64,000 nucleotides of DNA from Escherichia coli O127:H6 str. E2348/69. Lineage in GTDB: Bacteria > Pseudomonadota > Gammaproteobacteria > Enterobacterales > Enterobacteriaceae. The notes beneath the pieces were generated by a model. The model was given only the letters and a program-made list of their open reading frames with translations. It had not been told where the DNA came from and did no database searches. The stretch lies in assembly GCF_000026545.1 (NCBI RefSeq), contig NC_011601.1; one strand, given 5' to 3'. A program made the translations under genes and the position numbers. Shown piece by piece: positions 2,644 to 17,155 of this stretch (the first letter of the stretch is position 1; the number at the start of each line of letters is the position of its first letter).

Positions 2644-3786
2644 TCAAATCTGCTTTTCATACAATCGGTAACGCTTGTACGGCTCCGCCCCAATGCGTTC
2701 CAGCATGTTATTCATGCCTGTATTGGTTTCGAGGATCCATGACATTTCCAGCGCATCGATCTTCCGACGGGCAAACGGATCGCGTAAGGCTTCAATCAAT
2801 AACAGCGCAATTACCGGGCCGATGCGGCTGAACTGATACTCGTCCCGCACGCCCATCAGCGGTACTCGCGCAGTTCGCACACCGCTGACTTTCAAACGCC
2901 ACAGCAATTTTGCCCAGCCGAAGGGAAAGAGCGATCCGTTCAGATCGGCAATCGCCTCGTTGATGTTCGGCAAGCCGACAATAAACGCGCAGGGTGCAGA
3001 ATCAATCTCAGCGATGTAGATCATATCGTCCGGCACCAGATATTTAAGTTGATCGCCCATGGTCGCGAATTCATGTTCGGTAAACGGCACAAATCCCCAG
3101 TTGTGCTGCCAGCCAGAATTGAAAATCTCACGCAGGATCTGCATCTCTTCGGCAAACCGCTGGCGATTGATGCAGCGAATGGTCACCTTTTTGCGCACCT
3201 GATCCATCAGTTTTTTTAGCGCCGGAGAGAAAGTGAGATCGGTTCGCTGCATCCACCACGCCAGTAAATCAATGCCTTTGTGATAACCCAGTTGTTCAAT
3301 ATGCGCGGCATACCACGGTTTGCCGTGTGGCATCATCGCACAGGGCGGAGTGTCAAAACCTTCAATCAGTAATCCGCTTTCCTGATTGATATTCAGGCTG
3401 AAAGGCCCGCTGATCTTACTTGCACCTTGTGACTTTAACCACGCTTCCGCTGTACCAAACAACGCGGCAAAAACCTGCGGATCATCAATGGCGTCAATCA
3501 TGCCGAAATGACCGGTATCTTCACCGTAACGCTCACGGTGCAAGGTATCTATTTGCGCGGTAATACGCCCAACTATCTGCCCCGCTTTTTTTGCCACCCA
3601 CGCCTGCCAGATGATATGGTCCGTCCCCGGATTCTTCGCAGACAAATGCTCGTTGCGTTCAATGAATAAAGGGGGTATCCAGTTTGGATCGTCGGGATAA
3701 AGTGATGACGGAAAAGCGATAAATGCCTTAAGGTCATTTTTATTAATTACTTTTTCAATTTTAATCATCAGCAGATCGCATTCCAT
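2644..3786 (-). CDS. yghO: YghO, full-length 380-aa form; candidate N-acyltransferase (remembered as a pseudogene in K-12)
   Basis: 380-aa intact ORF beginning MECDLLMIKIEKVINKNDLKAF...; divergent from the adjacent biosynthetic operon. Function inferred from context only; exact start (1st or 2nd Met) uncertain. Confidence 0.75.
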   Translation of the reverse strand: MECDLLMIKIEKVINKNDLKAFIAFPSSLYPDDPNWIPPLFIERNEHLSAKNPGTDHIIWQAWVAKKAGQIVGRITAQIDTLHRERYGEDTGHFGMIDAIDDPQVFAALFGTAEAWLKSQGASKISGPFSLNINQESGLLIEGFDTPPCAMMPHGKPWYAAHIEQLGYHKGIDLLAWWMQRTDLTFSPALKKLMDQVRKKVTIRCINRQRFAEEMQILREIFNSGWQHNWGFVPFTEHEFATMGDQLKYLVPDDMIYIAEIDSAPCAFIVGLPNINEAIADLNGSLFPFGWAKLLWRLKVSGVRTARVPLMGVRDEYQFSRIGPVIALLLIEALRDPFARRKIDALEMSWILETNTGMNNMLERIGAEPYKRYRLYEKQI

Positions 3787-4138: not shown

Positions 4139-5872
4139 GTGGTGTATATGTCTAATAAAATCTTTACGCATTCCCTACCTATGCGCTATGCCGATTTTCC
4201 AACGCTGGTTGATGCTTTGGACTACGCCGCTCTGAGTAGCGCCGGAATGAATTTTTATGACAGACGTTGCCAACTTGAAGATCAACTGGAATATCAGACG
4301 TTAAAAGCGCGTGCCGAAGCTGGTGCGAAGCGGTTGTTATCGCTGAACCTGAAAAAAGGCGATCGCGTGGCGCTGATTGCCGAAACCAGTAGCGGGTTCG
4401 TAGAGGCTTTTTTTTCCTGCCAGTATGCCGGCTTAGTCGCCGTCCCGTTGGCGATTCCAATGGGCGTCGGTCAGCGGGATTCCTGGAGCGCCAAACTGCA
4501 GGGTTTACTGGCAAGTTGCCAGCCCGCAGCCATTATCACTGGTGATGAGTGGTTGCCACTGGTCAATGCCGCGACGCATAACAACAACCCCGAATTACAT
4601 GTTTTAAGCCACGCCTGGTTTAAGGCATTACCGGAAGCCGATGTTGCGCTCCAGCGTCCAGTTCCAAACGATATCGCCTACCTCCAGTACACCTCCGGCA
4701 GCACCCGTTTTCCCCGTGGCGTCATTATCACCCATCACGAAGTGATGGCTAATCTACGTGCTATAAGCCACGATGGCATTAAATTACGCCCTGGCGACCG
4801 CTGCGTCTCCTGGCTGCCTTTCTACCATGATATGGGACTGGTCGGCTTTCTCCTGACCCCCGTCGCCACGCAGCTTTCAGTAGATTATTTGCGCACTCAG
4901 GATTTTGCCATGCGTCCTCTGCAATGGCTTAAATTGATCAGTAAAAATCGCGGCACCGTTTCCGTTGCACCGCCGTTTGGCTATGAATTGTGCCAGCGCC
5001 GCGTGAATGAAAAAGATCTCGCTGAACTGGATCTTTCCTGCTGGCGCGTCGCTGGTATTGGAGCAGAACCGATCTCCGCAGAACAACTCCATCAATTCGC
5101 TGAATGTTTTCGTCAGGTTAACTTTGACGATAAAACTTTCATGCCGTGCTACGGACTGGCAGAAAATGCGCTGGCTGTCAGCTTCTCTGATGAAGCCTGC
5201 GGGGTTGTGGTTAACGAAGTGGATCGCGACATCCTCGAATACCAGGGTAAAGCCGTCGCGCCGGGTGCTGAAACACGCGCCGTATCGACTTTCGTCAACT
5301 GCGGTAAAGCGTTGCCGGAACATGGCATTGAAATCCGCAATGAAGCAGATATACCTGTCGCGGAACGTGTGGTAGGCCATATTTGCATCTCCGGCCCCAG
5401 CCTGATGAGCGGGTACTTTGGCGACCAGGTTTCGCAAGACGAGATTGCCGCGACGGGCTGGTTAGACACCGGCGACCTTGGTTATCTGCTGGACGGTTAT
5501 CTGTATGTCACCGGACGCATTAAAGATCTGATTATTATTCGTGGCCGTAATATCTGGCCGCAGGATATTGAATACATTGCGGAACAGGAACCGGAAATTC
5601 ATTCTGGCGATGCGATTGCTTTTGTTACCGCCCAGGAAAAAATCATTTTGCAGATCCAGTGTCGGATCAGCGACGAAGAACGTCGCGGGCAGCTTATCCA
5701 CGCGCTGGCAGCTCGGATCCAAAGCGAATTTGGCGTTACCGCGGATATCGATCTGTTGCCGCCCCACAGTATTCCCCGAACATCCTCCGGCAAGCCTGCC
5801 CGTGCGGAAGCGAAAAAACGTTATCAGAAGGCTTATGCTGCCAGTCTTCATGTGCAGGAATCCCTGGCATGA
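4139..5872 (+). CDS. AMP-dependent synthetase/ligase; fatty acyl-AMP ligase or acyl-ACP synthetase-like
   Basis: 577-aa ORF with adenylate-forming core motif YTSGSTRFPRGVIITH and downstream GYLYVTGRIKDLIIIRG motif typical of the ANL superfamily; stop overlaps next gene start (ATGA). Confidence 0.85.
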   Translation: MVYMSNKIFTHSLPMRYADFPTLVDALDYAALSSAGMNFYDRRCQLEDQLEYQTLKARAEAGAKRLLSLNLKKGDRVALIAETSSGFVEAFFSCQYAGLVAVPLAIPMGVGQRDSWSAKLQGLLASCQPAAIITGDEWLPLVNAATHNNNPELHVLSHAWFKALPEADVALQRPVPNDIAYLQYTSGSTRFPRGVIITHHEVMANLRAISHDGIKLRPGDRCVSWLPFYHDMGLVGFLLTPVATQLSVDYLRTQDFAMRPLQWLKLISKNRGTVSVAPPFGYELCQRRVNEKDLAELDLSCWRVAGIGAEPISAEQLHQFAECFRQVNFDDKTFMPCYGLAENALAVSFSDEACGVVVNEVDRDILEYQGKAVAPGAETRAVSTFVNCGKALPEHGIEIRNEADIPVAERVVGHICISGPSLMSGYFGDQVSQDEIAATGWLDTGDLGYLLDGYLYVTGRIKDLIIIRGRNIWPQDIEYIAEQEPEIHSGDAIAFVTAQEKIILQIQCRISDEERRGQLIHALAARIQSEFGVTADIDLLPPHSIPRTSSGKPARAEAKKRYQKAYAASLHVQESLA

Positions 5873-6783
5873 ATCAAACTGTCGCGGTGACGGGCGCTAC
5901 CGGGTTTATCGGTAAATATATTATTGATAACCTGCTCGCCCGCGGCTTTCACGTTCGCGCATTAACGCGTACTGCCCGCGCTCACGTCAATGATAATCTC
6001 ATCTGGGTGCGCGGTTCGCTGGAAGATACACATTCGCTTAGCGAACTGGTTGCCGGAGCCAGCGCGGTGGTCCATTGCGCCGGACAAGTGCGCGGACACA
6101 AAGAAGAGATTTTTACCCGCTGTAACGTTGACGGCAGCCTGCGCCTGATGCAAGCGGCAAAAGAGAGCGGCTTTTGCCAACGTTTTCTGTTTATCTCTTC
6201 GCTGGCGGCGCGCCATCCCGAACTCTCCTGGTACGCAAATTCCAAACACGTCGCCGAACAACGACTGATCGCAATGGCTGACGAAATTACGCTGGGCATT
6301 TTTCGCCCGACAGCCGTGTATGGTCCCGGCGATAAAGAGTTAAAACCGCTGTTTGACTGGATGCTGCGCGGCCTGCTGCCACGACTTGGTGCGCCAGATA
6401 CACAACTCTCTTTCCTGCACGTCACCGATTTTGCGCAAGCAGTGGGTCAGTGGTTAAACGCCGAAACTGTACAGACGCAAACCTATGAATTATGCGATGG
6501 CGTCGCTGGCGGCTATGACTGGCAACGCGTACGACAGCTTGCCGCCGAAGCCCGTTGTGGTTCTGTGCGGATGGTTGGCATTCCTCTGCCGCTACTCACC
6601 TGCCTTGCGGATATCAGTACTGCGTTGAGTCGCCTGGCAGGTAAAGAACCTATGCTGACCCGCTCGAAAATTCGTGAATTAACCCACGCCGACTGGTCGG
6701 CAAATAATAACCGTATTTCTGAAGATATTAATTGGTTTCCCGGGATTAGCCTGGAACACGCATTACGCAACGGGCTATTTTGA
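5869..6783 (+). CDS. NAD(P)-dependent epimerase/dehydratase-family oxidoreductase (extended SDR); candidate 3-keto reductase
   Basis: Start chosen at ATG 5869 (MNQTVAVTGATGFIGKYIIDNL...), giving an N-terminal Rossmann GxxGxxG motif; the longer ORF from 5659 would overlap the upstream gene by 200 bp and is rejected. Confidence 0.8.
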   Translation: MNQTVAVTGATGFIGKYIIDNLLARGFHVRALTRTARAHVNDNLIWVRGSLEDTHSLSELVAGASAVVHCAGQVRGHKEEIFTRCNVDGSLRLMQAAKESGFCQRFLFISSLAARHPELSWYANSKHVAEQRLIAMADEITLGIFRPTAVYGPGDKELKPLFDWMLRGLLPRLGAPDTQLSFLHVTDFAQAVGQWLNAETVQTQTYELCDGVAGGYDWQRVRQLAAEARCGSVRMVGIPLPLLTCLADISTALSRLAGKEPMLTRSKIRELTHADWSANNNRISEDINWFPGISLEHALRNGLF

Positions 6784-6814: not shown

Positions 6815-7063
6815 ATGGTAAATCGTGAAATAGTAATGGATTACATCCTTTCCTGTTTACAGGATTTGGTCGAAAACGGTGTGGAAATTAAGCCCGACAG
6901 CGATCTCGTCAACGATCTTGGCCTGGAGTCGATCAAAGTGATGGATCTCTTAATGATGCTGGAAGACAGATTCGATATTTCCATTCCTATTAATATTCTG
7001 CTGGATGTCAAAACCCCTGCGCAATTAATGGAAACTCTACTTCCATGGCTGGAGAATAAATAA
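6815..7063 (+). CDS. Acyl carrier protein (phosphopantetheine-binding)
   Basis: 82-aa acidic ORF with ACP-like motif DLGLESIKVMDLLMMLEDRF (conserved Ser attachment site); AAAGG ribosome-binding site upstream; stop overlaps next start (TAATG). Confidence 0.8.
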   Translation: MVNREIVMDYILSCLQDLVENGVEIKPDSDLVNDLGLESIKVMDLLMMLEDRFDISIPINILLDVKTPAQLMETLLPWLENK

Positions 7064-8235
7064 TGGGGCTATACGATAAATATGCGCGCCTTGCTGGCGA
7101 GCGCCTGCAATTTAGTGATAACGGGTTAACACCATTTGGCACCTGTATTGATGAAGTATATTCCGCCACCGAAGGCCGGATCGGCAATAAAAAAGTGATT
7201 CTGGCCGGGACCAATAATTATCTCGGTTTAACCTTTAATCATGATGCTATCCGCGAAGGTCAGGCAGCGTTAGCGGCCCAAGGCACTGGCACCACCGGTT
7301 CTCGTATGGCAAACGGCAGTTATGCGCCGCATCTGGCGTTAGAGAAAGAGATTGCCGAGTTTTTCAATCGCCCTACCGCTATCGTTTTTTCAACCGGTTA
7401 TACAGCTAATTTAGGCGTCATCAGCGCACTTGCCGACCATAACGCCGTGGTGTTACTGGATGCCGACAGCCACGCCAGTATTTATGACGCCTGTTCTCTC
7501 GGCGGCGCAGAGATTATTCGTTTCCGCCATAATGACGTCAACGATCTGGAACGGCGCATGGTCCGCCTCGGTGAACGGGCGAAAGAGGCGATTATTATCG
7601 TTGAAGGCATCTACAGTATGCTCGGTGACGTTGCGCCGCTGGCAGAAATTGTTGATATCAAACGTCGTCTCGGTGGTTATTTGATTGTCGATGAAGCACA
7701 TTCGTTTGGCGTGTTAGGCGTAACAGGCCGCGGACTGGTTGAAGCCGTTGGCGTTGAAGACGACGTGGATATTATCGTCGGCACCTTCAGTAAAAGTTTG
7801 GCTTCCATTGGTGGTTTTGCCGTGGGTTCAGAAGCGATGGAAGTGCTGCGCTACGGCAGCCGCCCGTATATTTTTACCGCCTCTCCTTCTCCGTCCTGCA
7901 TTGCGACCGTGCGCTCGTCGTTAAGAACCATTGCCACACAACCAGAGTTGCGGCAAAAACTGATGGATAACGCCAACCATCTGTATGACGGTCTGCAAAA
8001 ACTGGGTTACGAGTTAAGTTCACATATTAGCCCGGTAGTGCCAGTAATAATCGGTTCGAAAGAGGAAGGTTTACGCATCTGGCGCGAGCTTATTTCGCTG
8101 GGCGTTTATGTGAATCTTATCCTGCCACCTGCCGCGCCTGCAGGCATCACGCTGCTGCGCTGTAGCGTAAACGCTGCCCACAGTCGTGAGCAAATCGATG
8201 CCATCATTCAGGCATTTGCTACTCTGAAGCAGTAA
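7063..8235 (+). CDS. PLP-dependent alpha-oxoamine synthase (serine palmitoyltransferase / 8-amino-7-oxononanoate synthase family)
   Basis: 390-aa ORF with class-II aminotransferase features: HSFG motif and PLP-lysine motif GTFSKSLASIGGF. A paralogue of BioF/Kbl, but co-operonic with an ACP and an acyl-AMP ligase. Confidence 0.85.
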   Translation: MGLYDKYARLAGERLQFSDNGLTPFGTCIDEVYSATEGRIGNKKVILAGTNNYLGLTFNHDAIREGQAALAAQGTGTTGSRMANGSYAPHLALEKEIAEFFNRPTAIVFSTGYTANLGVISALADHNAVVLLDADSHASIYDACSLGGAEIIRFRHNDVNDLERRMVRLGERAKEAIIIVEGIYSMLGDVAPLAEIVDIKRRLGGYLIVDEAHSFGVLGVTGRGLVEAVGVEDDVDIIVGTFSKSLASIGGFAVGSEAMEVLRYGSRPYIFTASPSPSCIATVRSSLRTIATQPELRQKLMDNANHLYDGLQKLGYELSSHISPVVPVIIGSKEEGLRIWRELISLGVYVNLILPPAAPAGITLLRCSVNAAHSREQIDAIIQAFATLKQ

Positions 8236-8241
8236 TGTGAA

Positions 8242-8272
8242 CCCGCCGTGGTGTTGCGCCACGGCGGGTTTA
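8242..8272. terminator. Bidirectional intrinsic terminator between convergent operons
   Basis: Perfect inverted repeat CCCGCCGTGG-(7 nt)-CCACGGCGGG followed by TTTA, between the plus-strand AOS gene and the minus-strand LptG-like gene. Confidence 0.7.
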
Positions 8273-9349
8273 ATGTTGTCTGTCATGCCAATACACCAGG
8301 CTCAACGCCACCAGCACAAACGCTACCGGTAAACCGAGCGCGGTAACAGGTGCGCTCAACGCAAATAGCAATCCCAGATTGACCATGATTTGATAGCTGA
8401 TCCAGGTGAGTAAACCAACGATGACCCCTACAGCGAGACGGCTACCCATCCTAGGCGAGCGCGGGGCACTAAAGGTAAACGGCACAGCCAGCAAAATCAT
8501 CGCCAGAGTCAAGATGGGTTGCCCCAGTTTTTCCCACAGTGCAAGGCGGTATTCGCTGCTGGGTTGCCCGGTTTCCTGCAAATAATGGATGTAATGATTA
8601 AGCTGACGGACAGAAAAAGTATTTCCCGGCATCGATAACTCTTCAAGATTCATACTGGTGAAGGTCGATTGCCAGGCAAGATAATCAGATGTTTCCTGCG
8701 TTTCTTTGCCATTCAGCCATTTTTTATGATTCACACCATGCAGGATCCACGTTTTGTCATCTTCAATGGTGGCACTGCGCGCATAAATGTAGGATTCGAG
8801 CGAGAGATCATCGCGGTAATGAAATATCTCCACGTCCACCGGCTGGCCCTGCTCGTTCAGCGATTTCACCGTCACAAATTCATTACCACGCCTGGCCCAC
8901 AGCATATTGCCGGTAATGTCATCGTCCTCCCCCAACGCAGTGGCAGTCGATTTGATTTGCAGCGCCTGTTGCTGCAATGGCGACGCCACCCACTCATCTA
9001 TCGCGCCTAATGAAACAGTCCACAATATCCCGGCAACCAGCGCCACCAGTGCAATACGGAAGATAGAAAACCCCGTGCTGCGAATGGCGGTAAGCTCACT
9101 GTTTTTCGATAACTGCCCCAGGCCGACAATCCCTCCCAATAAGGCGATAAACGGCGAAAGTTCGACCAGTGTGCGCGGTAAGGTCATCAGCACCACCAGC
9201 ACCGCCTGAGTCCAGCGATAACCACCCGGGCTGACATCATCCAGTTCGTTAATCAGGTTGAAGGTGGTAAAAAGCGGCAGCAATAGCCCTGCGGCGGCGG
9301 CAAAACCGAGAAAGAGATGACGGATTAAATAGCGACTGAAAACATTCAT
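8270..9349 (-). CDS. LptG-like permease (YjgP/YjgQ family)
   Basis: Multi-pass membrane protein; start placed at Met of MNVFSRYLIRHLFLGF..., which overlaps the upstream gene stop (ATGA). Resembles LptF/LptG N-termini and topology, with a central periplasmic domain. Confidence 0.75.
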   Translation of the reverse strand: MNVFSRYLIRHLFLGFAAAAGLLLPLFTTFNLINELDDVSPGGYRWTQAVLVVLMTLPRTLVELSPFIALLGGIVGLGQLSKNSELTAIRSTGFSIFRIALVALVAGILWTVSLGAIDEWVASPLQQQALQIKSTATALGEDDDITGNMLWARRGNEFVTVKSLNEQGQPVDVEIFHYRDDLSLESYIYARSATIEDDKTWILHGVNHKKWLNGKETQETSDYLAWQSTFTSMNLEELSMPGNTFSVRQLNHYIHYLQETGQPSSEYRLALWEKLGQPILTLAMILLAVPFTFSAPRSPRMGSRLAVGVIVGLLTWISYQIMVNLGLLFALSAPVTALGLPVAFVLVALSLVYWHDRQH

Positions 9350-10416
9350 CGGGAAAATTTCTGCAGCAAAGAGAAGTCGCGTGCGACCAACATCAGCAGG
9401 CCCATTAGCATGAGTCCGGGTACTAACCACAAACCAGGAATGAGGGGAATCGCGCCGTTAGCCACCAGCGTACGGCAGACGTCGCCGCCATAAAAAATGG
9501 CAACAAACAGCAACGTCAGTGGCAATAACGTTGAAAATCGCCCTTGCCGCGGTTTTACCCGACTTAATGAAATGGCCAGCAGCGCCATCAACAATGCTGT
9601 CAGGCCACGGCTTTGTCGCCATTGCAGTTCGGCATGATCGGCAGGAAAGGCGGAGCGCGCCAGCTCCGTGACCGATTTTGCTTTGCGTTTGACGTTAGGG
9701 CTTTGATCCAGCGGATTCAGATGTAATTGCAGATTACGGTAGATCTGTTCGTTGTCGTCACGCCCCTGATGATCGAGAAGATAGGCGGTCCCGTTATGCA
9801 ACATAACGGTCGGTTTCTCAGGTGATGGGTCAACCACATCAACCGAACGGGCGCGGAAAATGCGGGTTCGATTAGCAGTAGAAGTATAAATCAGCGCGTC
9901 AGTCAGGCGATTATTATCCTGATCAACCGTCTGCGAAAGGATCATTCGTCCGTTATCGTTAGTGTTAAATTGCTTTGCCCGCAACTGGCGAACATCCAGC
10001 TCCGACTGTGACTGTTGCTCCAGTTGATAAATCTGCGCATAAGCCCACGGACGACCATACATCGACAGAAGGGTGACAAAAATACTTAGCGGTATCGCCA
10101 GATAAAGAACGGCTTTGTACAAGCGTCCCGGACTGCCCCCCGCCGCAGAGATAGCGGTAATTTCCGAGTCGGTATACATCTGCCCTAGCGTCACGCCAAC
10201 TGACACATACAGTCCAACAGGTAACAACATCTCCAGTGCAATCAGCACTTTGTAGAAAACGATATCCAGCACAACATCAAGAGCTAATGTCCCATTTGCC
10301 GCTTCGGTCAGATAACGCTGTGCGGAGTAGCTGGCGAAAATAAAGATCAGAAAACCGACGATAATCAGCACCAGACGGCGCGTACCACGCATGATGTAGT
10401 GTTCAACCAGCTTCAT
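9346..10416 (-). CDS. LptF-like permease (YjgP/YjgQ family)
   Basis: 356-aa ORF MKLVEHYIMRGTRRLVLIIVGFLIF...; hydrophobic N- and C-terminal segments with a central soluble domain, as in LptF/LptG; translationally coupled to the downstream permease. Confidence 0.75.
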   Translation of the reverse strand: MKLVEHYIMRGTRRLVLIIVGFLIFIFASYSAQRYLTEAANGTLALDVVLDIVFYKVLIALEMLLPVGLYVSVGVTLGQMYTDSEITAISAAGGSPGRLYKAVLYLAIPLSIFVTLLSMYGRPWAYAQIYQLEQQSQSELDVRQLRAKQFNTNDNGRMILSQTVDQDNNRLTDALIYTSTANRTRIFRARSVDVVDPSPEKPTVMLHNGTAYLLDHQGRDDNEQIYRNLQLHLNPLDQSPNVKRKAKSVTELARSAFPADHAELQWRQSRGLTALLMALLAISLSRVKPRQGRFSTLLPLTLLFVAIFYGGDVCRTLVANGAIPLIPGLWLVPGLMLMGLLMLVARDFSLLQKFSR

Positions 10417-10445: not shown

Positions 10446-11009
10446 TTATTCATTGATCAGCTTCTGCGCCAGCGCAATGACATGATCTACCTCTTCCGGC
10501 GTCAGGCTGCCGTCCTTTGCCCACTGAATTTGCCCGGTTTTATTCAGCACCAGAATGGTTGAACTCTGCTCCTGCAAGTGCCAGGCAACGCGTCCCTGTC
10601 CATTGCCGTCAATAACGAATTGCGCCCATGGATAGCGGCGTTTATTTTTTTCGATTTTGCCAACGACAAAATAGCCGGTACCAAAGATGGCATCATCAGT
10701 GTTCACAATGGTGGTGGGCTGAAAACGATCCTGCGGAAAGTTTGCCGCTTCAACTGCTTTAATTAACAGTGAGTTCTTTTTCTTCGCCGACTTACGCCCG
10801 GCGATATACTGAATAATGCGAACTTTTCCTGCCAATTGGGTGCTGTTCCACTTTTGGTAGTGAATTTCGTCGTCGCTATTCCGAAGCAGCTCGCCGCCTT
10901 CCTGGATATAAACGGGGGTAACCGTTTTGCCAGTGACGAAATTGTGTGCCTGCACACCCGGGGCTAAGAGCATGATAATCAGCGCAATAATCAAACGAGA
11001 TGACATCAT
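10446..11009 (-). CDS. Secreted periplasmic protein, YtfJ-like
   Basis: 187-aa ORF with N-terminal signal peptide (MMSSRLIIALIIMLLAPGVQA); family assignment is from memory of YtfJ-type proteins, not a search. Confidence 0.5.
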   Translation of the reverse strand: MMSSRLIIALIIMLLAPGVQAHNFVTGKTVTPVYIQEGGELLRNSDDEIHYQKWNSTQLAGKVRIIQYIAGRKSAKKKNSLLIKAVEAANFPQDRFQPTTIVNTDDAIFGTGYFVVGKIEKNKRRYPWAQFVIDGNGQGRVAWHLQEQSSTILVLNKTGQIQWAKDGSLTPEEVDHVIALAQKLINE

Positions 11010-11017
11010 TGCTCCGG

Positions 11018-11842
11018 TTATAGCGGAAAACGCGAAATCAGCAGTTCTAAGCGCTGGCGAATATCGCTATCCAGCGCCATCGGTGCATCATACGACTGGC
11101 GGTTTTCCATATCATCCGCCACCATGTCGTCGTGTTTATCCCCCATCAGGCCATTAATGGCGGCGAGGAAGCGGGAAATCTGTAACGCCTCTTTATTTTC
11201 AGGATCAAGCGATCTTAAGGTGTCGTAATAAGAAACCTGCTGGCTGATGATTTTTCGCACATCATGAAATTCCCTGCCAGTTAGTTGCGGTTTAGCAATA
11301 ATCTCTTTCAGGATGTACATTTGCTTCTGGCGGTAGGCGATAAAACCGTTCACGGTTTCTAACTGGCTATGGCGCAATGAATAGTTCACCAGCCACCAGA
11401 CAGGGGAGCTCAAATAAACACGTAACAGGTTACCGTAAAACGACACAATATTTTTCTTACCGTTACGAAAGCCATCCTGAAAATGCCCAAGAAAAACGGT
11501 CGTTTTGCCGAATAAAAATCCAGCCTGATGCTTCTTTAAATACAGCCGTTGCGCAAAACGCAGATGCTTGTAGCGCGCTCGCATGTATTTAAACTGTTTG
11601 CGCTCGTCTGTCGTCAGCTCATCGCCTTTCGCCTGTTTGCGGATTAAACGCAGTAACTCCTGACGATTAACACCATCCAGCCAGAATTTCAGGCATAACG
11701 CGTAATTATCATGGATGATTTCGGTGGTACAACTTAGTGCGATAGTCGGCGGCAAACTGACCTGTGCATCAACAACATCATCTTCTTCAATCGCAACAAA
11801 TAGACGCTCGCTCGCCTCAAGCGGGAAATATTTTCTCATCAT
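11018..11842 (-). CDS. Hypothetical basic protein, operon member of unknown function
   Basis: 274-aa ORF with no signal peptide or obvious transmembrane segments; start overlaps the yghQ stop by 1 nt; no recognisable catalytic motif. Confidence 0.6.
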   Translation of the reverse strand: MMRKYFPLEASERLFVAIEEDDVVDAQVSLPPTIALSCTTEIIHDNYALCLKFWLDGVNRQELLRLIRKQAKGDELTTDERKQFKYMRARYKHLRFAQRLYLKKHQAGFLFGKTTVFLGHFQDGFRNGKKNIVSFYGNLLRVYLSSPVWWLVNYSLRHSQLETVNGFIAYRQKQMYILKEIIAKPQLTGREFHDVRKIISQQVSYYDTLRSLDPENKEALQISRFLAAINGLMGDKHDDMVADDMENRQSYDAPMALDSDIRQRLELLISRFPL

Positions 11843-13191
11843 CAGGATTTCTCTCCGGTTGAGTTATAAAGCAAGGAATGGCGCTGAAAAAATGCCTTTA
11901 AGGTCGGAATTAGCGAGAGCACCACATCCAGACATTGCCCACCGAAGTAAGCAAATGCAGCCCCCAGCACGCCAAACAGATGACAGAACATGAACAGCAA
12001 TACGATGTAGCCGATTGAGGCGATGGTTTGCGCCACGAGAAAAGCGCGCTGTTTTCCCGCCATCAATAGCAATGACTCCTGTGGGAAGCCCAGCATCGAA
12101 ATCACAATTGCGCCCAGCATCACCTGAATCAGGTCATACGCTTCGAGATACTTAACGCCAAACACCAGCGAAATGAGCGGCTTGCCGACGATCAACACCG
12201 CGAGCGCCACCAGAATACCGATTCCGCCCGCCAGTAAACCGGACTTCACGCCTAACAACCACGGTCTGGTGGTGCGTGGATCTAAACGCATCACCTCTGG
12301 ATAAAAACTTTTGCCCAGTAAACCCGCTGGCGTTCCGGCGGCATCGAAGAATGTCATGGCGATTTTAAATAACCCGACAGCAGCGGGTCCTAACACGATC
12401 CCCACCAACACTGTGCTGCACGAGTTACGCGCCGACCAGATGGAGTGGGCAATGTTGGTTGACCAGACAAAACTCCACGCGCCTTTAATGTGTCGGGCAG
12501 ACTCAAACAGATTCAATTTGAAGGCGTTATGGATATTTCTGCGGCGTAATTCGCGCGCGGCAAACCACCAGTACATGGTGCCGCCAACCAGATTCGACAC
12601 GTACCAGGCAATAACAAAACCCGCAAAACCAAAGTCAAAATACCAGGCTACGACGCTCCCCGCTGCGCGCAGAAAAGGTTTCGTCGCCTGCTGTACAGCA
12701 ATCAAATCAAAGCGATCTACCGCACGCAGAATGCCGGTCGGCGTGGAGGAAGCCATTGAAGGAATGAGCGTGCAATAGAGCGCCGCCAGCCAAAAGCTTT
12801 GGTCATCCAGACCTAATGAATGGGAAAGGAATGGCAGTAAGGCAATGCCGCCGACAATCGCCACCGCGCCGCTGACGATATCCAGCGAGAAGGAAAATGA
12901 GACAACATTGCGAAATTGCTGCGGATTATTGTTGGTCAAGGCCGGCGTTCCGTACTGGACCACCAGTTGCCATGTCTGAAACTTAATAAAATCGCTGATC
13001 GATTTGGCGTACGATTGCACAATTACCAGTACGCCAAACATGGCGGGCGTCATCCCTTTACCGGCACACGAGAGCGCCAACAGCCCCAGCAAAGCGCTCA
13101 CAACATTACTGGAGCCTAACCAGGCGCTATTGCGAATAATGGTGCGAAACGCGCCATCTGCAAACCAATGTTTGATGTTTAAACCCGCCAA
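11842..13191 (-). CDS. yghQ: Polysaccharide/lipid flippase-like inner membrane protein (MOP superfamily), full-length YghQ
   Basis: 449-aa polytopic membrane ORF; the K-12 YghQ is remembered as shorter (N-terminally truncated), and this copy appears to be the intact form. Confidence 0.8.
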   Translation of the reverse strand: MAGLNIKHWFADGAFRTIIRNSAWLGSSNVVSALLGLLALSCAGKGMTPAMFGVLVIVQSYAKSISDFIKFQTWQLVVQYGTPALTNNNPQQFRNVVSFSFSLDIVSGAVAIVGGIALLPFLSHSLGLDDQSFWLAALYCTLIPSMASSTPTGILRAVDRFDLIAVQQATKPFLRAAGSVVAWYFDFGFAGFVIAWYVSNLVGGTMYWWFAARELRRRNIHNAFKLNLFESARHIKGAWSFVWSTNIAHSIWSARNSCSTVLVGIVLGPAAVGLFKIAMTFFDAAGTPAGLLGKSFYPEVMRLDPRTTRPWLLGVKSGLLAGGIGILVALAVLIVGKPLISLVFGVKYLEAYDLIQVMLGAIVISMLGFPQESLLLMAGKQRAFLVAQTIASIGYIVLLFMFCHLFGVLGAAFAYFGGQCLDVVLSLIPTLKAFFQRHSLLYNSTGEKS

Positions 13192-13236
13192 TTCAGCCTG
13201 ACCTTATCGTTGATAGTAAAAAGTATCCCGCCAGCC

Positions 13237-13995
13237 TTAAGTTAAACTTCGGCGGTCAGAAACGATGGCAACCAGAGAAACCGCCTTCTGTGCCTGTTCC
13301 AGCACCTCGCTGTAAGGCGCTCTGGAATCAATCTCAAGAATTTTTGTGCCGTTATAGCCAATCGTCGACATGACGCCGATTTTGTCCTGCAGCTCGGCAT
13401 AGTCATGGTCAGGCTTGCGGGAGATGGCAGTATCAATATCAATCCCCAAGCGAATGATTAATTCAGGACGGTATTGCGCCATTTGTTGGTATAAGCGCCG
13501 TTCGCGCTGCGCCAGAAACATGCTGATTTTCCCGGTCGCACGTTCGACGCCGATCCCCGGTCCGTCATAATAAAAGCCCGAAATTTCAGCCTGCGGGAAG
13601 CGATCGCTGACCACCAGAACGCCACTTTGCGCCAGTCGCTGAACCTTGCGCAGATTCGCCATTCTTCGCAGCGAGAAGCAGTACATAATCACCGCCGCCC
13701 ATAGCGCCGGAGATTTGGTTTTCATGCTTTGGGTTTTCGAGGATTTGGCCGCCAGTCGCCGTTCCAGCCAGACGCCAACCAACGGCAACCGTTTGATTTT
13801 GTCGCCGTCTTCGCCTGAGAGCAGCCCCAGATAGCGGCGCTCGGTTTGCCAGTGTTGTTGCAGCGATTTCACCAGGTCAGTGGTCAGTGTGGATTTACCG
13901 GTGCCATCACACCCGACCACCGCAATCAGCCCCGGAATGTAGTTGGGCTGCGGCGCGGTTGTACTCTTAACAGTTTGTGTTTGTAGTGCATCCAT
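13237..13995 (-). CDS. yghR: P-loop NTPase, kinase-like (YghR)
   Basis: 252-aa ORF; Walker A GCDGTGKST plus VVSDRFPQ (DRY/F-like motif of nucleoside/nucleotide-kinase-fold proteins); paralogue of the next two genes. Confidence 0.85.
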   Translation of the reverse strand: MDALQTQTVKSTTAPQPNYIPGLIAVVGCDGTGKSTLTTDLVKSLQQHWQTERRYLGLLSGEDGDKIKRLPLVGVWLERRLAAKSSKTQSMKTKSPALWAAVIMYCFSLRRMANLRKVQRLAQSGVLVVSDRFPQAEISGFYYDGPGIGVERATGKISMFLAQRERRLYQQMAQYRPELIIRLGIDIDTAISRKPDHDYAELQDKIGVMSTIGYNGTKILEIDSRAPYSEVLEQAQKAVSLVAIVSDRRSLT

Positions 13996-14026
13996 TCGTT
14001 AAATCATCCCCTATCCATTTTGGTGA

Positions 14027-14740
14027 TCAGGAAAGCGCGGCGTGAATTGCGCGTAGTGACGCTTGCAGAATTTCATCGGCTGGTTGCCGACCATCCAGTT
14101 CAAGGATCTTTGCGCCATTGAATGTCAGTTGCGGCGTAACGGCGATTTTTTCCTGTAACGCTGCCAGTTGGTGGTCAGGTTTACGCGCAAACGCGGTTTG
14201 TTCATCAATGCCAAGACGAATCAACAATACGGGCAAATAAGACGCCATCCATTGGTACAGCTTCAGCTCGCGCTGCCTTAACATTTTTATCCAACCGTTA
14301 CCGCCCGTGGTTTTTGCCAATTGCGGGCCATCAAAGCGAAAACCCGGCACTTCAACCTGCGGGTAGCGGTCGGTGATGAGCAGATAGCCTTGCTGGCTTT
14401 TACACAACATTTTGCGAAACTTGTACGCCCGCCAGCAGGAAAGCAGATAGATAACCAGCGCAGTAATATTGCCAGGCGGTGTTAAGGGCTTTTCGTGCAC
14501 ATGTGCCGCTTTACTTCGCAAATAACGCCCAAAAGGTGCGCCAATAACAGGGAGCTGTGAAATCCATTCGCCAATTCGCCCGGACGATTGCCCGAGATAA
14601 ATGTGTTCTGTTGGCATTCTTGATGCCAGTTCATTTACCAGGCTTGCCGTGAGGGTCGATTTACCTGAACCATCACATCCTACAATGGCAATAACACGCA
14701 CTGGCGTGGAATTAATTATTGACATATTACGTTGATTCAC
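14027..14740 (-). CDS. yghS: P-loop NTPase, kinase-like (YghS)
   Basis: 237-aa ORF; Walker A GCDGSGKST and LITDRYPQ motif; paralogue of YghR and YghT. Confidence 0.85.
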   Translation of the reverse strand: MNQRNMSIINSTPVRVIAIVGCDGSGKSTLTASLVNELASRMPTEHIYLGQSSGRIGEWISQLPVIGAPFGRYLRSKAAHVHEKPLTPPGNITALVIYLLSCWRAYKFRKMLCKSQQGYLLITDRYPQVEVPGFRFDGPQLAKTTGGNGWIKMLRQRELKLYQWMASYLPVLLIRLGIDEQTAFARKPDHQLAALQEKIAVTPQLTFNGAKILELDGRQPADEILQASLRAIHAALS

Positions 14741-14914
14741 GAAAAACCCGGCAGCAAATAATGTATTGAATATTACGTGGTCCGTGCTCAGAATATCCGT
14801 TCAACCTTATTGTGACAATGGTTAATTGTGACATTGACCTGAATTACGCTTTCATCAAAAACATATTAACCAAATAAATATTTTGGATGGACATTTAAAT
14901 TTAAGGATATATTC

Positions 14915-15607
14915 ATGCAGTCAATAATACCTCCATTAATTGCCGTTATTGGTAGCGATGGTTCAGGCAAGTCAACGGTGTGTGAACATCTTATTACCGT
15001 TGTCGAAAAATATGGTGCTGCCGAAAGGGTTCATTTAGGAAAACAGGCCGGAAATGTCGGTCGTGCAGTGACAAAATTACCGTTGATGGGAAAATCCTTA
15101 CATAAAACAATTGAACGAAATCAGGTAAAAATAGCAAAAAAATTGCCGGGACCAGTTCCGGCGCTGGTAATTACAGCGTTTGTCGCCCGCCGCTTACTGC
15201 GCTTTCGTCATATGCTTGCCTGTCGTCGTCGCGGGTTAATTGTTTTAACCGACCGTTATCCGCAGGAACAGATTCCTGGCGCTTATGATGGTACGGTGTT
15301 CCCGCCTAACGTTGAAGGTGGTCGTTTTGTCTCATGGCTGGCAAGTCAGGAACGTAAAGCATTTCACTGGATGGCGAGCCATAAGCCCGATCTGGTCATC
15401 AAACTCAATGTCGATCTGGACGTAGCCTGCGCGCGTAAGCCTGACCACAAAAGAGAATCGCTGGAAAGGAAGATAGCAATAACGCCACAGTTAACCTTTG
15501 GAGGCGCGCAACTGGTTGATATCGATGCCAATCAACCGCTGGAACAAGTGCTGGTTGATGCGGAAAAAGCGATTACGGATTTTATGACCGCGCGTGGTTA
15601 TCACTAG
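14915..15607 (+). CDS. yghT: P-loop NTPase, kinase-like (YghT)
   Basis: 230-aa ORF; Walker [10 protein letters not shown] and VLTDRYPQ motif; divergently transcribed from yghS. Confidence 0.85.
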
Positions 15608-15655
15608 TCAAAAATGGAAATGCCCGATCGCCAGGACCGGGCATTTTCAGGAAGG

Positions 15656-17155
15656 TTAAATCAACTGCAATGCTATCCAGTACAACCCACCAGAAAGAAA
15701 AATCGCCGCCGGTAAAGTAAATACCCACGCCATCAGGATGCTGGTTACCGTTTTACGCTGTAACCCACCGCCGTCCACCACCATCGTCCCTGCTACTGCA
15801 GACGAGAGTACGTGTGTTGTGGAGACGGGCATCCCAATATAACTGGCAAGGCCGATAGACACTGCCGCCGTCATCTGTGCCGCCATGCCTTGCGCATACG
15901 TCATGCCGCGCTTACCAATCTTCTCACCGATGGTCATCGCTACACGACGCCAGCCAATCATGGTGCCGATGCCGAGCGCCAGTGCTACCGCCATGATGAT
16001 CCATACCGGTGCGTACTCAATGGTGCTTAACATATCGCTGCGCAGTTTTTTCAGCAGGTTCTGGTCTTCTTTACTGACGCCTGGCAGTTTCGCCAGCTTC
16101 GCGGAGGTATCAGAGATGCACAGCATAATGCGGCGCAGCTGGCTGCGCTGACTCACGCTTAACGGCTCGTAACTTTCCATATTGCCTGGCAGCATCGTTT
16201 TAACGCGCGCAATCGCATCAAAGGTATTTGCCGGATGACAGTGAAACTCTGTTACTTGCGTGCCATCAGTCGATGTCGCAGGCAATGGAGGTTCCATCGT
16301 AATCAACTTCTGCGGCAGTTCAGGATGCTGTTGCAGGTAGTGTTCGAAGTTGGTGACGGCATCGCGGGTACGGGTAATTTCATAGCCGGACGCATTCATA
16401 TTGACGACAAACCCGGCGGGAGCAATCCCCACCAGCACCAGCATCACCAGACCAATTCCTTTCTGCCCGTCGTTCGCGCCGTGCGAAAACGCCACGCCCG
16501 CAGCGGAAACAATGAGGGCAATACGCGTCCAGAATGGCGGCTTACGTTTGCCTTTTTTCTTTTGGCGATCTTCCGGAATGCGGTGAATACGGTCACGCTT
16601 TTTCGTCCCGCTCCAGTAGCGACGCAGCAGAAAAATCAGCCCCCCCGCAATCACCAGCCCCACGATGGGGGAGACAATGAGTGAAGAGAAAATCTTGGTG
16701 ACTTCGCGCAGGTTTAACGCATCCATCACCGACGAACCATTTAACAGCGCGTTGGTTAAACCGATGCCGATAATCGCACCAATCAAAGTGTGCGAACTGG
16801 AGGCCGGTAAACCAAAGAACCACGTTCCCAGATTCCAGATAATCGCCGCCAGCAGCATGGAAAAGACCATCGCCAGACCGTGAGTTGACCCCATATTCAG
16901 CAACAAATCGGTTGGCAACATATGGACGATGGCATAGGCAACGCTAAGCCCGCCAAGCAATACGCCAAAAAAGTTAAAAAATGCCGCCATGACTACAGCA
17001 AGCTGTGGTTGCATGGCACGGGTATAAATAACGGTTGCCACCGCATTCGCTGTGTCATGAAAACCATTGATTGCTTCATAGAACAACACAAATGCCAGAG
17101 CAAGTAATAACAAAAGCCCCGTATATATATCAAGGCCAACAAATAAATTTAGCAT
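15656..17155 (-). CDS. pitB: Low-affinity inorganic phosphate transporter PitB
   Basis: 499-aa polytopic ORF recognised as E. coli PitB (PiT family). Confidence 0.9.

Follow-up and report, generated by a model that had tools for sequence, protein, structure and literature searches.

Why should three similar kinase-like genes lie next to a lipid pathway in Escherichia coli, and on what would their products act? The question is raised by yghR (13237-13995, minus strand, 252 amino acids), yghS (14027-14740, minus strand, 237 amino acids) and yghT (14915-15607, plus strand, 230 amino acids, divergent from yghS), which are found in a stretch of 64,000 nucleotides of contig NC_011601.1 of E. coli O127:H6 str. 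E2348/69, called the window below. A sequence-only reading of the window had taken the three products for paralogous P-loop proteins reminiscent of thymidylate and deoxynucleoside kinases, and had proposed that their triplication beside a lipid pathway could reflect sequential phosphorylation or head-group activation. The analysis presented here reveals a kinase family with the predicted fold of thymidylate kinase (TMK), whose synteny across genera strongly supports its being a dedicated component of proteobacterial sphingolipid loci. We give about an even chance to the reading that these kinases are cytoplasmic and phosphorylate ceramide, or ceramide phosphate, before the lipid is flipped and exported.

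Open reading frames lie exactly at the positions first proposed, and the gene names are those of the RefSeq annotation of E2348/69 (NZ_CP059840.2), which is 100% identical to the window over positions 11000-16000. Pairwise BLASTP alignments show identities of 44% between YghR and YghS (E=2e-61), 37% between YghS and YghT (E=1e-53) and 34% between YghR and YghT (E=2e-47), values far past chance that make the three proteins true paralogues. The motifs singled out by the sequence-only reading were all recovered in the three proteins. The Walker A motif G(C/S)DGxGKST reads GCDGTGKST in YghR (13888-13914) and GCDGSGKST in YghS (14654-14680), and occurs in its Ser variant in YghT (14951-14977); the (S/T)DR(F/Y)PQ motif is SDRFPQ in YghR (13591-13608) and TDRYPQ in both YghS (14357-14374) and YghT (15248-15265); and an RKPDH block, located in the lid at about 14171-14185 in yghS, is followed by L(E/Q)xKI. 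No transmembrane segment was found in YghR, YghS or YghT, whose net charge is +10 to +11. Residues 17-22 of YghS (IAIVGC), which form the strand preceding Walker A, end in a lipobox-like VGC that probably explains the 'Putative lipoprotein' label of an Erwinia orthologue in the AlphaFold database. This label is spurious, since YghT has a Ser at that place and the stretch is the P-loop strand of the predicted fold.

When a profile of the family was compared with the sequences of the PDB, TMK (from P. falciparum) was matched at E=1.5e-11 through three collinear blocks: the P-loop, an 'S-x-x-R ... DRY' segment and the lid. An AlphaFold model of YghS built on a 50-sequence family alignment (predicted local distance difference test score, pLDDT, of 91; predicted template-modelling score, pTM, of 0.87) displays five parallel strands, a helical acceptor-side region and a helical lid; it replaced a model derived from the alignment of the three paralogues alone, which was too weak (pLDDT 65.6). 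Taken together, the profile match and the model show that the YghR/S/T family has the predicted fold of TMK and of nucleoside monophosphate (NMP) kinases, including the P-loop, the DR(Y/H) motif and the lid, which supports the structural side of the sequence-only reading. Conservation was counted over 134 family members from 74 loci, in YghS numbering. Residues G21, D23, G24, G26, K27, G50, G67, R104, D124, R125, P127, Q128, D137, E158, P170, R186, K187, D189, H190 and K198 are each conserved in at least 99% of them, and the three motifs G.DG.GK[ST], DR[YFHW]P and R[KR]P are intact together in 123 of the 134. K27, R104, D124, R125 and R186, by which membership of the superfamily of P-loop NMP and small-molecule kinases can be judged, are thus all conserved. 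Because motifs and key residues are intact, all paralogues, YghR, YghS and YghT among them, look catalytically competent.

The acceptor side of the active site gives the first indication of what the substrate might be. In the profile alignment R104 of YghS, which belongs to the S-x-x-R motif encoded at 14426-14440, pairs with the Arg of the TMK 'FSANRW' motif, the residue that holds the phosphate of the acceptor nucleotide in TMK. R104 is the main hint that the acceptor of the Ygh kinases carries a phosphate or another anionic group. This TMK-type Arg is invariant in the Ygh family and is, to our knowledge, lacking in deoxynucleoside kinases, of which the dNK, dGK and dCK enzymes also differ from YghR/S/T in showing no significant sequence match to them. 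A family-specific helical insertion of about 30 residues, between strand 2 and the S-x-x-R helix (residues ~60-90 of YghS), lies over the acceptor site, and it covers the region in which, in the same alignment, the thymine-stacking Phe of the TMK 'LLFSANRW' sequence pairs with Leu100 of YghS.

An ABC-ATPase (ATP-binding cassette) or GTPase fold was also looked for and not seen; the LSGGQ signature, Q-loop, H-loop and ABC fold that define ABC-transporter ATPases were not found. The fold thereby contradicts the notion that YghR/S/T are the missing ATPase subunits of an ABC-type LptF2/LptG2 exporter, a notion that draws on the presence in the E. coli gene cluster of LptF and LptG paralogues with no LptB paralogue, and on weak ABC-ATPase matches confined to the P-loop in the family scans. 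These matches, however, are limited to 20-30 residues in the Walker A region, LptF2/G2 are missing from many loci that have the kinases, and the LptF2/G2 proteins of Caulobacter bind the housekeeping LptB, so that we consider such a role extremely improbable. Two further affiliations were tried and rejected. Membership of the PPK2 family found no support in family matches and had a lower structural rank, and homology with CpgB or CERK fails because CpgB is of the diacylglycerol (DAG) kinase type with a GGDG motif, whereas Pfam and NCBIfam searches gave no DAGK-domain match for YghR/S/T.

If the fold is that of TMK, are the three proteins simply additional dTMP kinases? RefSeq indeed names YghS and YghT 'dTMP kinase' and YghR 'nucleoside/nucleotide kinase family protein', and TMK is the top structural and profile match. 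The P-loop GxDGxGKST with its third-position Asp, the S-x-x-R Arg, the DR(Y/F) motif and the Arg/Lys-bearing lid are common to both. However, the three proteins score only 30.9, 25.1 and 24.6 bits against TIGR00041, below its curated cut-off of 83.25, and at most 24.7 bits against NF005923, for which the cut-off is 193; matches to Pfam PF02223 (Thymidylate_kin) are marginal (i-Evalue 0.013-0.3). The Ygh family further differs from TMK in the ~30-residue helical insertion, in the apparent replacement of the base-stacking Phe by Leu in YghS, and in invariant residues of its own: the PQ that follows DRY, D137, E158, D189, H190 and K198. With scores so far below the cut-offs and a family insertion over the acceptor site, the RefSeq name 'dTMP kinase' is an over-annotation. 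Thousands of E. coli genomes now bear the label, as do AlphaFold database and UniProt entries across the family; the neighbours found in the AlphaFold database come from the same taxa and are auto-named 'thymidylate kinase' or 'ATP-binding protein', none of them being characterised. TMK is a single housekeeping gene, and E. coli already has its own essential tmk, whereas the Ygh kinases are encoded by groups of paralogous genes within clusters for lipids and flippases. That they are extra dTMP or other nucleoside/nucleotide kinases for DNA precursors, placed by chance in a lipid island, would leave their synteny with sphingolipid and flippase genes across classes of Proteobacteria without explanation, and appears very unlikely.

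The evidence for a link with sphingolipids comes from the conservation of this synteny. The family comprises 2156 clusters at 50% identity (E<=1e-3), and 72 loci of other species, collected in a scan of one genome per species, were searched by tblastn with the proteins of the E. coli island. Orthologues of R, S and T are each 55-73% identical among E. coli, Serratia and Carnimonas (YghR, for instance, 73% in Serratia and 55% in Carnimonas), to be compared with 34-46% between paralogues. By distance clustering, the T-type proteins form one clade and the R/S-type proteins another; one T and one R/S kinase are present in Alpha-proteobacteria and Pseudomonas, and T, S and R in gamma- and beta-proteobacteria. 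The position equivalent to residue 48 of YghS is His in every T-type and Tyr in every R/S-type protein. The triplication put forward by the sequence-only reading is therefore real as paralogy but is not peculiar to E. coli, being an ancient divergence of T from R/S followed by a split of R/S in gamma- and beta-proteobacteria. Over 79 loci (L002-L080), three kinases are found in 28, two in 26, four in 5 and a single one in 20, some of these last lying on short contigs.

Among the 72 loci, the gene spt occurs within 10 kb in 25, and homologues of the flippase YghQ and of a conserved soluble protein, Hyp274, occur in 43 each. When only the 50 loci of at least 18 kb are considered, 43 have spt, Hyp274 or YghQ within 10 kb, and three of the seven exceptions are sphingomonad loci in which a different transporter, of MATE/MOP type, and a methyltransferase stand beside the kinase. 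Gene order is identical across genera of Enterobacterales, where spt-acpR-cerR-aasR-yghO accompany the genes for YghT/S/R, YghQ, Hyp274, YtfJ and LptF2G2; the complete island, sometimes rearranged, is present in Hafnia, Pseudocitrobacter, Shimwellia, Erwinia, Serratia, Mangrovibacter, Cedecea, Pluralibacter, Citrobacter, Rosenbergiella and Tatumella. Partial islands, with kinases beside spt-acpR-cerR-aasR, occur in Luteibacter, Dyella, Pseudomonas, Rhodocyclaceae, Methylotenera and Carnimonas. In Novosphingobium, Sphingomonas and Sphingopyxis, as in the Acetobacteraceae Gluconobacter, Commensalibacter, Bombella and Saccharibacter, two kinases stand with YghQ and Hyp274 and the sphingolipid genes are scattered. 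The link to a lipid pathway is thus kept over many genera.

In E. coli E2348/69 the kinases belong to a 13-gene island located between glcC and pitB, as defined by RefSeq annotation and family scans, and the lipid pathway adjacent to them is a sphingolipid (ceramide) cluster, yghO-aasR-cerR-acpR-spt (PMC9386255). The genes aasR (4148-5872), a cerR-like reductase gene (5869-6783), acpR (6815-7063) and spt (7063-8235) lie on the plus strand and serve 3-oxosphinganine and ceramide synthesis; AcpR, AasR and Spt of E. coli BL21 were shown biochemically to make 3-oxosphinganine, and YghO and the reductase were assigned to ceramide formation (PMC9386255). yghO (2644-3786, minus strand) encodes an acyl-CoA N-acyltransferase that is the counterpart of the Caulobacter ceramide synthase CC_1154 (PMC9386255). 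On the minus strand yghS and yghR open a string, yghS-yghR-yghQ-hyp274-ytfJ-lptF2-lptG2, with gaps of at most 45 bp and two overlaps. yghQ (11842-13191), 45 bp downstream of yghR, encodes a MOP-family flippase of 449 amino acids, and its stop codon is overlapped by the start of hyp274 (11018-11842), which encodes a conserved soluble protein of 274 amino acids. Further downstream are the genes of an LptF paralogue (an LptF2-like permease, 9346-10416) and, overlapping it by 4 bp as the last gene of the string, of an LptG paralogue (an LptG2-like permease, 8270-9349). Annotation and family scans recognised no glycosyltransferase, nucleotidyltransferase or CDP-alcohol (cytidine diphosphate alcohol) transferase in the E. 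coli island, and none of the Caulobacter Cpg genes is found there. As the island is without other such enzymes, the three kinases and Hyp274 are its sole candidates for head-group chemistry.

The neighbours of the kinases in other taxa, examined by clustering all open reading frames of the loci and then annotating the clusters, indicate what kind of chemistry this could be. In nine of the nine loci that have it, a membrane methyltransferase lies directly beside a kinase; it is closest to LmtA, the lipid A 1-phosphate O-methyltransferase (TIGR04571 E=4e-30, below the cut-off of that model; Pfam PEMT 1.8e-14), and examples are L036 8491-9261, L063 9054-9971, L068 9171-9974, L071 5255-5995, L077 75-848 and L079 9231-9971. 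In sphingomonads the gene forms part of a trio of transporter, methyltransferase and kinase. Two groups of PAP2 phosphatases of the LpxE/LpxF/PgpB/SepP type are found in 10 and 8 loci, mostly by T-type kinases. In Pseudomonas marginalis (L069 7933-13183), an MsbA-like ABC exporter stands in place of the YghQ flippase; its gene lies between spt and the two kinase genes, and that of a CptA-type phosphoethanolamine transferase (E=4e-245) comes directly after them. Six loci contain OlsC/LpxO-like acyl hydroxylases. Seven have a DgkA-like small lipid kinase (Pfam PF01219) downstream of yghO or of the kinases, which could be the maker of ceramide 1-phosphate; these loci, from Serratia, Erwinia, Rosenbergiella and Carnimonas, are L002 (2279-2644), L004 (12404-12730), L015, L016, L021, L041 and L074. 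Since phosphatases, phosphoethanolamine transferases and phosphate methyltransferases need a lipid-bound phosphate, the Ygh-type kinases encoded beside these relatives of LpxE/LpxF, CptA and LmtA are its obvious source.

More distant members of the family (28-36% identity) extend the association with flippases beyond sphingolipid loci. They are proteins of about 500 amino acids with an N-terminal domain of about 260 residues (P0165, P0169, P0173 and P0183), for which no Pfam match was obtained; by eye, its 'G-x-TD(L/M)D(L/M)LV' motif (for example 'TDLDLLV') recalls minimal nucleotidyltransferases. P0217 is a fusion in which a MOP flippase precedes the kinase protein, P0251 joins a GT4 glycosyltransferase to a kinase, and one distant homologue lies between a flippase gene and the GT4/Wzy genes of a polysaccharide cluster. 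In L005 and L007 a further P-loop kinase gene, of divergent sequence, comes after the fused one. Because both features are already seen in the distant homologues of polysaccharide clusters, the pairing of kinase with flippase and the pairing of kinases predate the link to sphingolipids, and the ancestral substrate may have been another lipid-linked intermediate.

The same observations could be read as pointing to nucleotide-binding partners of the flippase or exporter, that is, to a hetero-oligomeric ATPase or switch by which YghQ or LptF2G2 would be gated, energised or regulated, or the lipid checked ahead of its export. The kinases mostly come in sets of two to four distinct paralogues, which suggests a heteromer; they are paired with a MOP flippase, to which one is even fused; and the distant fused homologues are again accompanied by a second, different P-loop protein. 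On the other hand, the NMP-kinase catalytic set (R104, R125 and the lid residues R186/K187) is invariant, as befits a phosphotransferase and not a switch. MOP flippases are not known to need ATPases, Caulobacter LptF2/G2 use LptB, and in the Pseudomonas loci the exporter found with the kinases is of MsbA type and brings an ATPase of its own. We therefore consider a role of this kind rather improbable.

The main rival to the lipid-kinase reading is that the kinases act on a soluble head-group precursor, such as a small acid, an alcohol or a nucleotide-linked intermediate bearing a phosphate or carboxylate, which another protein, for instance Hyp274, would transfer to ceramide, the kinases themselves having no contact with the lipid. 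The close structural relatives of YghR/S/T (TMK and the adenylate, deoxynucleoside, shikimate, gluconate and chloramphenicol kinases) all use soluble substrates, and YghR/S/T are without a membrane anchor. The Caulobacter head group derives from a soluble activated compound, CDP-phosphoglycerate, made by CpgD (PMC12275187), and some kinase loci of Pseudomonas and sphingomonads hold a small nucleotidyltransferase (cluster 18). Hyp274 is conserved and has many invariant His, Arg, Lys and Asp residues (its invariant positions include R88, K92, H105, Q122, D123, F192, H193, R196, K197, N230, G231, H237 and D238), and could be a transferase. Yet no Pfam, NCBIfam or PDB-profile match was found for Hyp274, a transferase family included; in the E. 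coli island none of the nucleotidyltransferases, CDP-alcohol transferases or glycosyltransferases that such a route might call for was recognised; the accessory neighbours in other taxa act on lipid-attached phosphate; and the flippase fusion and adjacency point to a membrane-bound intermediate. Use of a soluble precursor is accordingly judged unlikely, though it deserves to be taken seriously.

Two attempts to place Hyp274 were negative. Its repeated R-x-x-x-K-H-L-R and G-x-x-x-D motifs had raised the suspicion of a CHAD (polyphosphate-binding) domain; none of 24 Hyp274 family members matches CHAD PF05235 at E<=0.1, and hhalign comparisons with the CHAD domain of E. coli YgiF, and with an alignment of YgiF homologues, gave probabilities of 0.1-0.3%. 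A single homologue, P0343, is named 'CHAD domain-containing protein' in UniRef, and CHAD is an unproven lead. Nor is Hyp274 a free-standing version of the ~260-residue N-terminal domain of the fused homologues, with which neither BLASTP nor hhalign found similarity.

We return to the lipid-kinase reading, in which sequential phosphorylation or head-group activation, as suggested at the outset, plausibly fits both the neighbours and the active-site residues. The route that we infer would begin at the inner face of the inner membrane, where Spt, AcpR, AasR, the CerR-like reductase and YghO would make ceramide; the first-named three enzymes have been demonstrated for E. coli, and the part of the others is presumed. 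With ATP as donor, the Ygh kinases would then phosphorylate the ceramide head group, either at a hydroxyl or by extending ceramide 1-phosphate to a di- or oligophosphate. The second variant is favoured, at least for the R/S type, because the acceptor-phosphate Arg of TMK is invariant. DgkA, or a DgkA-like enzyme of the locus, could supply the ceramide 1-phosphate. E. coli DgkA phosphorylates ceramide in vitro, which makes ceramide 1-phosphate a plausible acceptor for an NMP-kinase-like enzyme. T-type and R/S-type kinases would carry out different steps, after which the MOP flippase YghQ would flip the anionic lipid, and LptF2/LptG2, probably with LptB, would extract it for delivery to the outer membrane.

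Such an order of events has a precedent in LpxK, the lipid A 4'-kinase. This P-loop kinase adds phosphate to a membrane lipid on the cytoplasmic side, and flipping follows. The likeness of LpxK to the Ygh kinases is one of logic and not of family, and its N-terminal membrane helix is absent from YghR/S/T. A closer counterpart is provided by Caulobacter, which makes an anionic phosphosphingolipid that needs LptF2/G2 (PMC10331486, PMC11324152, preprint 10.64898/2026.04.12.717747); these LptF/LptG paralogues, encoded in the sphingolipid locus, remove the anionic sphingolipid from the inner membrane and bind LptB (preprint 10.64898/2026.04.12.717747). There CpgB (CCNA_01218/CC_1160), a soluble cytoplasmic protein also encoded in the sphingolipid locus, starts the formation of the LptF2/LptG2-dependent lipid (PMC10331486; preprint 10.64898/2026.04.12.717747), and we propose it as a functional analogue of the Ygh kinases. 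In family it differs from them: it is of the DAG-kinase/sphingosine-kinase type and has a GGDG motif (PMC10331486), and its fold has no relation to that of the P-loop, TMK-like YghR/S/T.

A more elaborate version of the scheme, which we regard as speculative and doubtful, is a relay of TMK-fold lipid kinases that would build a pyrophosphate or oligophosphate on ceramide, from the 1-phosphate to the diphosphate and perhaps the triphosphate. Each paralogue would add a successive phosphate and the basic protein Hyp274 would hold or pass the growing chain. The product, multiply phosphorylated in the manner of lipid A, would be flipped by YghQ and exported to the outer membrane by LptF2G2, both in roughly three quarters of all E. 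coli strains and in numerous Proteobacteria that produce sphingolipids; in other taxa it would then be trimmed, methylated or decorated with phosphoethanolamine in the periplasm.

Several considerations weigh against ceramide or its phosphate being the substrate. A search of the literature found no paper linking yghR/S/T or TMK-like kinases to sphingolipids, just as no functional study was found for yghQ in connection with sphingolipids or for phosphoceramides in Acetobacter or sphingomonads. We know of no TMK-fold lipid kinase. The equivalence of R104 with the TMK Arg rests on a profile alignment and a predicted model. Neighbours acting on lipid phosphate are present in a minority of loci and absent from the E. 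coli island, and the distant family members stand in ordinary polysaccharide clusters without spt, so that the ancestral substrate need not have been a sphingolipid. CpgB, which is the one bacterial ceramide kinase to have been proven, belongs to the DAG-kinase type (PMC10331486), an unrelated one. Among 5426 complete E. coli genomes, 4067 have the ceramide genes and 4604 have yghRST; about 540 have kept yghRST in the absence of the ceramide genes, including that of the K-12 derivative J53. The K-12 lineage has lost the ceramide-synthesis genes and retained yghQRST, a situation compatible with a recent deletion or with a role independent of ceramide. In strain H25 just the last 172 bases of yghT are left, adjoining gspL.

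The remaining features of the island concern its boundaries and expression. A hairpin with a 16-bp stem (8238-8272) between the convergent ends of spt and lptG2 is probably a bidirectional terminator, and another with a 12-bp stem (15618-15646) lies where the ends of yghT and pitB converge and delimits the island on the right. The divergent yghS/yghT intergenic region (14741-14914, 174 bp) presumably contains both promoters. It includes one sigma-70-like match on the minus strand (14818-14790), and a promoter scan of the region gave a number of matches not above that expected from shuffled sequence. The literature search gave no paper that assigns the kinases a function, and only three data on their genes. 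In K-12 the same spacer carries a FlhDC peak obtained by systematic evolution of ligands by exponential enrichment (SELEX; PMC9962212), and K-12 knock-outs of these genes gave no silkworm-virulence phenotype (PMC9278758); yghS is up 3.1-fold on over-production of SlyA (PMC5797941). Between hyp274 and lptF2 lies the gene of a YtfJ-family periplasmic protein with a signal peptide (10446-11006, minus strand), which scores 212 bits with TIGR01626, a model whose cut-off is 151. This gene is an additional copy to the chromosomal ytfJ family, and its link to the kinases is confined to Enterobacterales (15 loci). For the LptG paralogue, the mechanically called open reading frame starts at a GTG at 9430 and encodes 386 amino acids, and the RefSeq start at 9349 gives 359 amino acids; the shorter form fits the LptG model end to end.

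The y-genes themselves have long been known; what appears to be new is that they make up a conserved kinase module, with several paralogues, in sphingolipid loci, and the prediction that this module acts on the lipid head group. A widespread 'dTMP kinase' database label is also corrected. The ceramide island is found in about three quarters of the complete genomes of the best-studied bacterium, in which the kinases, YghQ and Hyp274 are the only candidates for the steps that follow ceramide synthesis. Sphingomonadaceae, Acetobacteraceae, Pseudomonas and Serratia are among the other bacteria that have this module. If lipid phosphorylation is indeed their function, the Ygh proteins would be the first TMK-fold lipid kinases and would provide a second route to anionic bacterial sphingolipids, evolutionarily unrelated to that of CpgB. 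Pathogenic E. coli (enteropathogenic E. coli E2348/69 and B2 strains, and not K-12) would then have a surface lipid that could affect polymyxin sensitivity, outer-membrane strength and recognition by the host.

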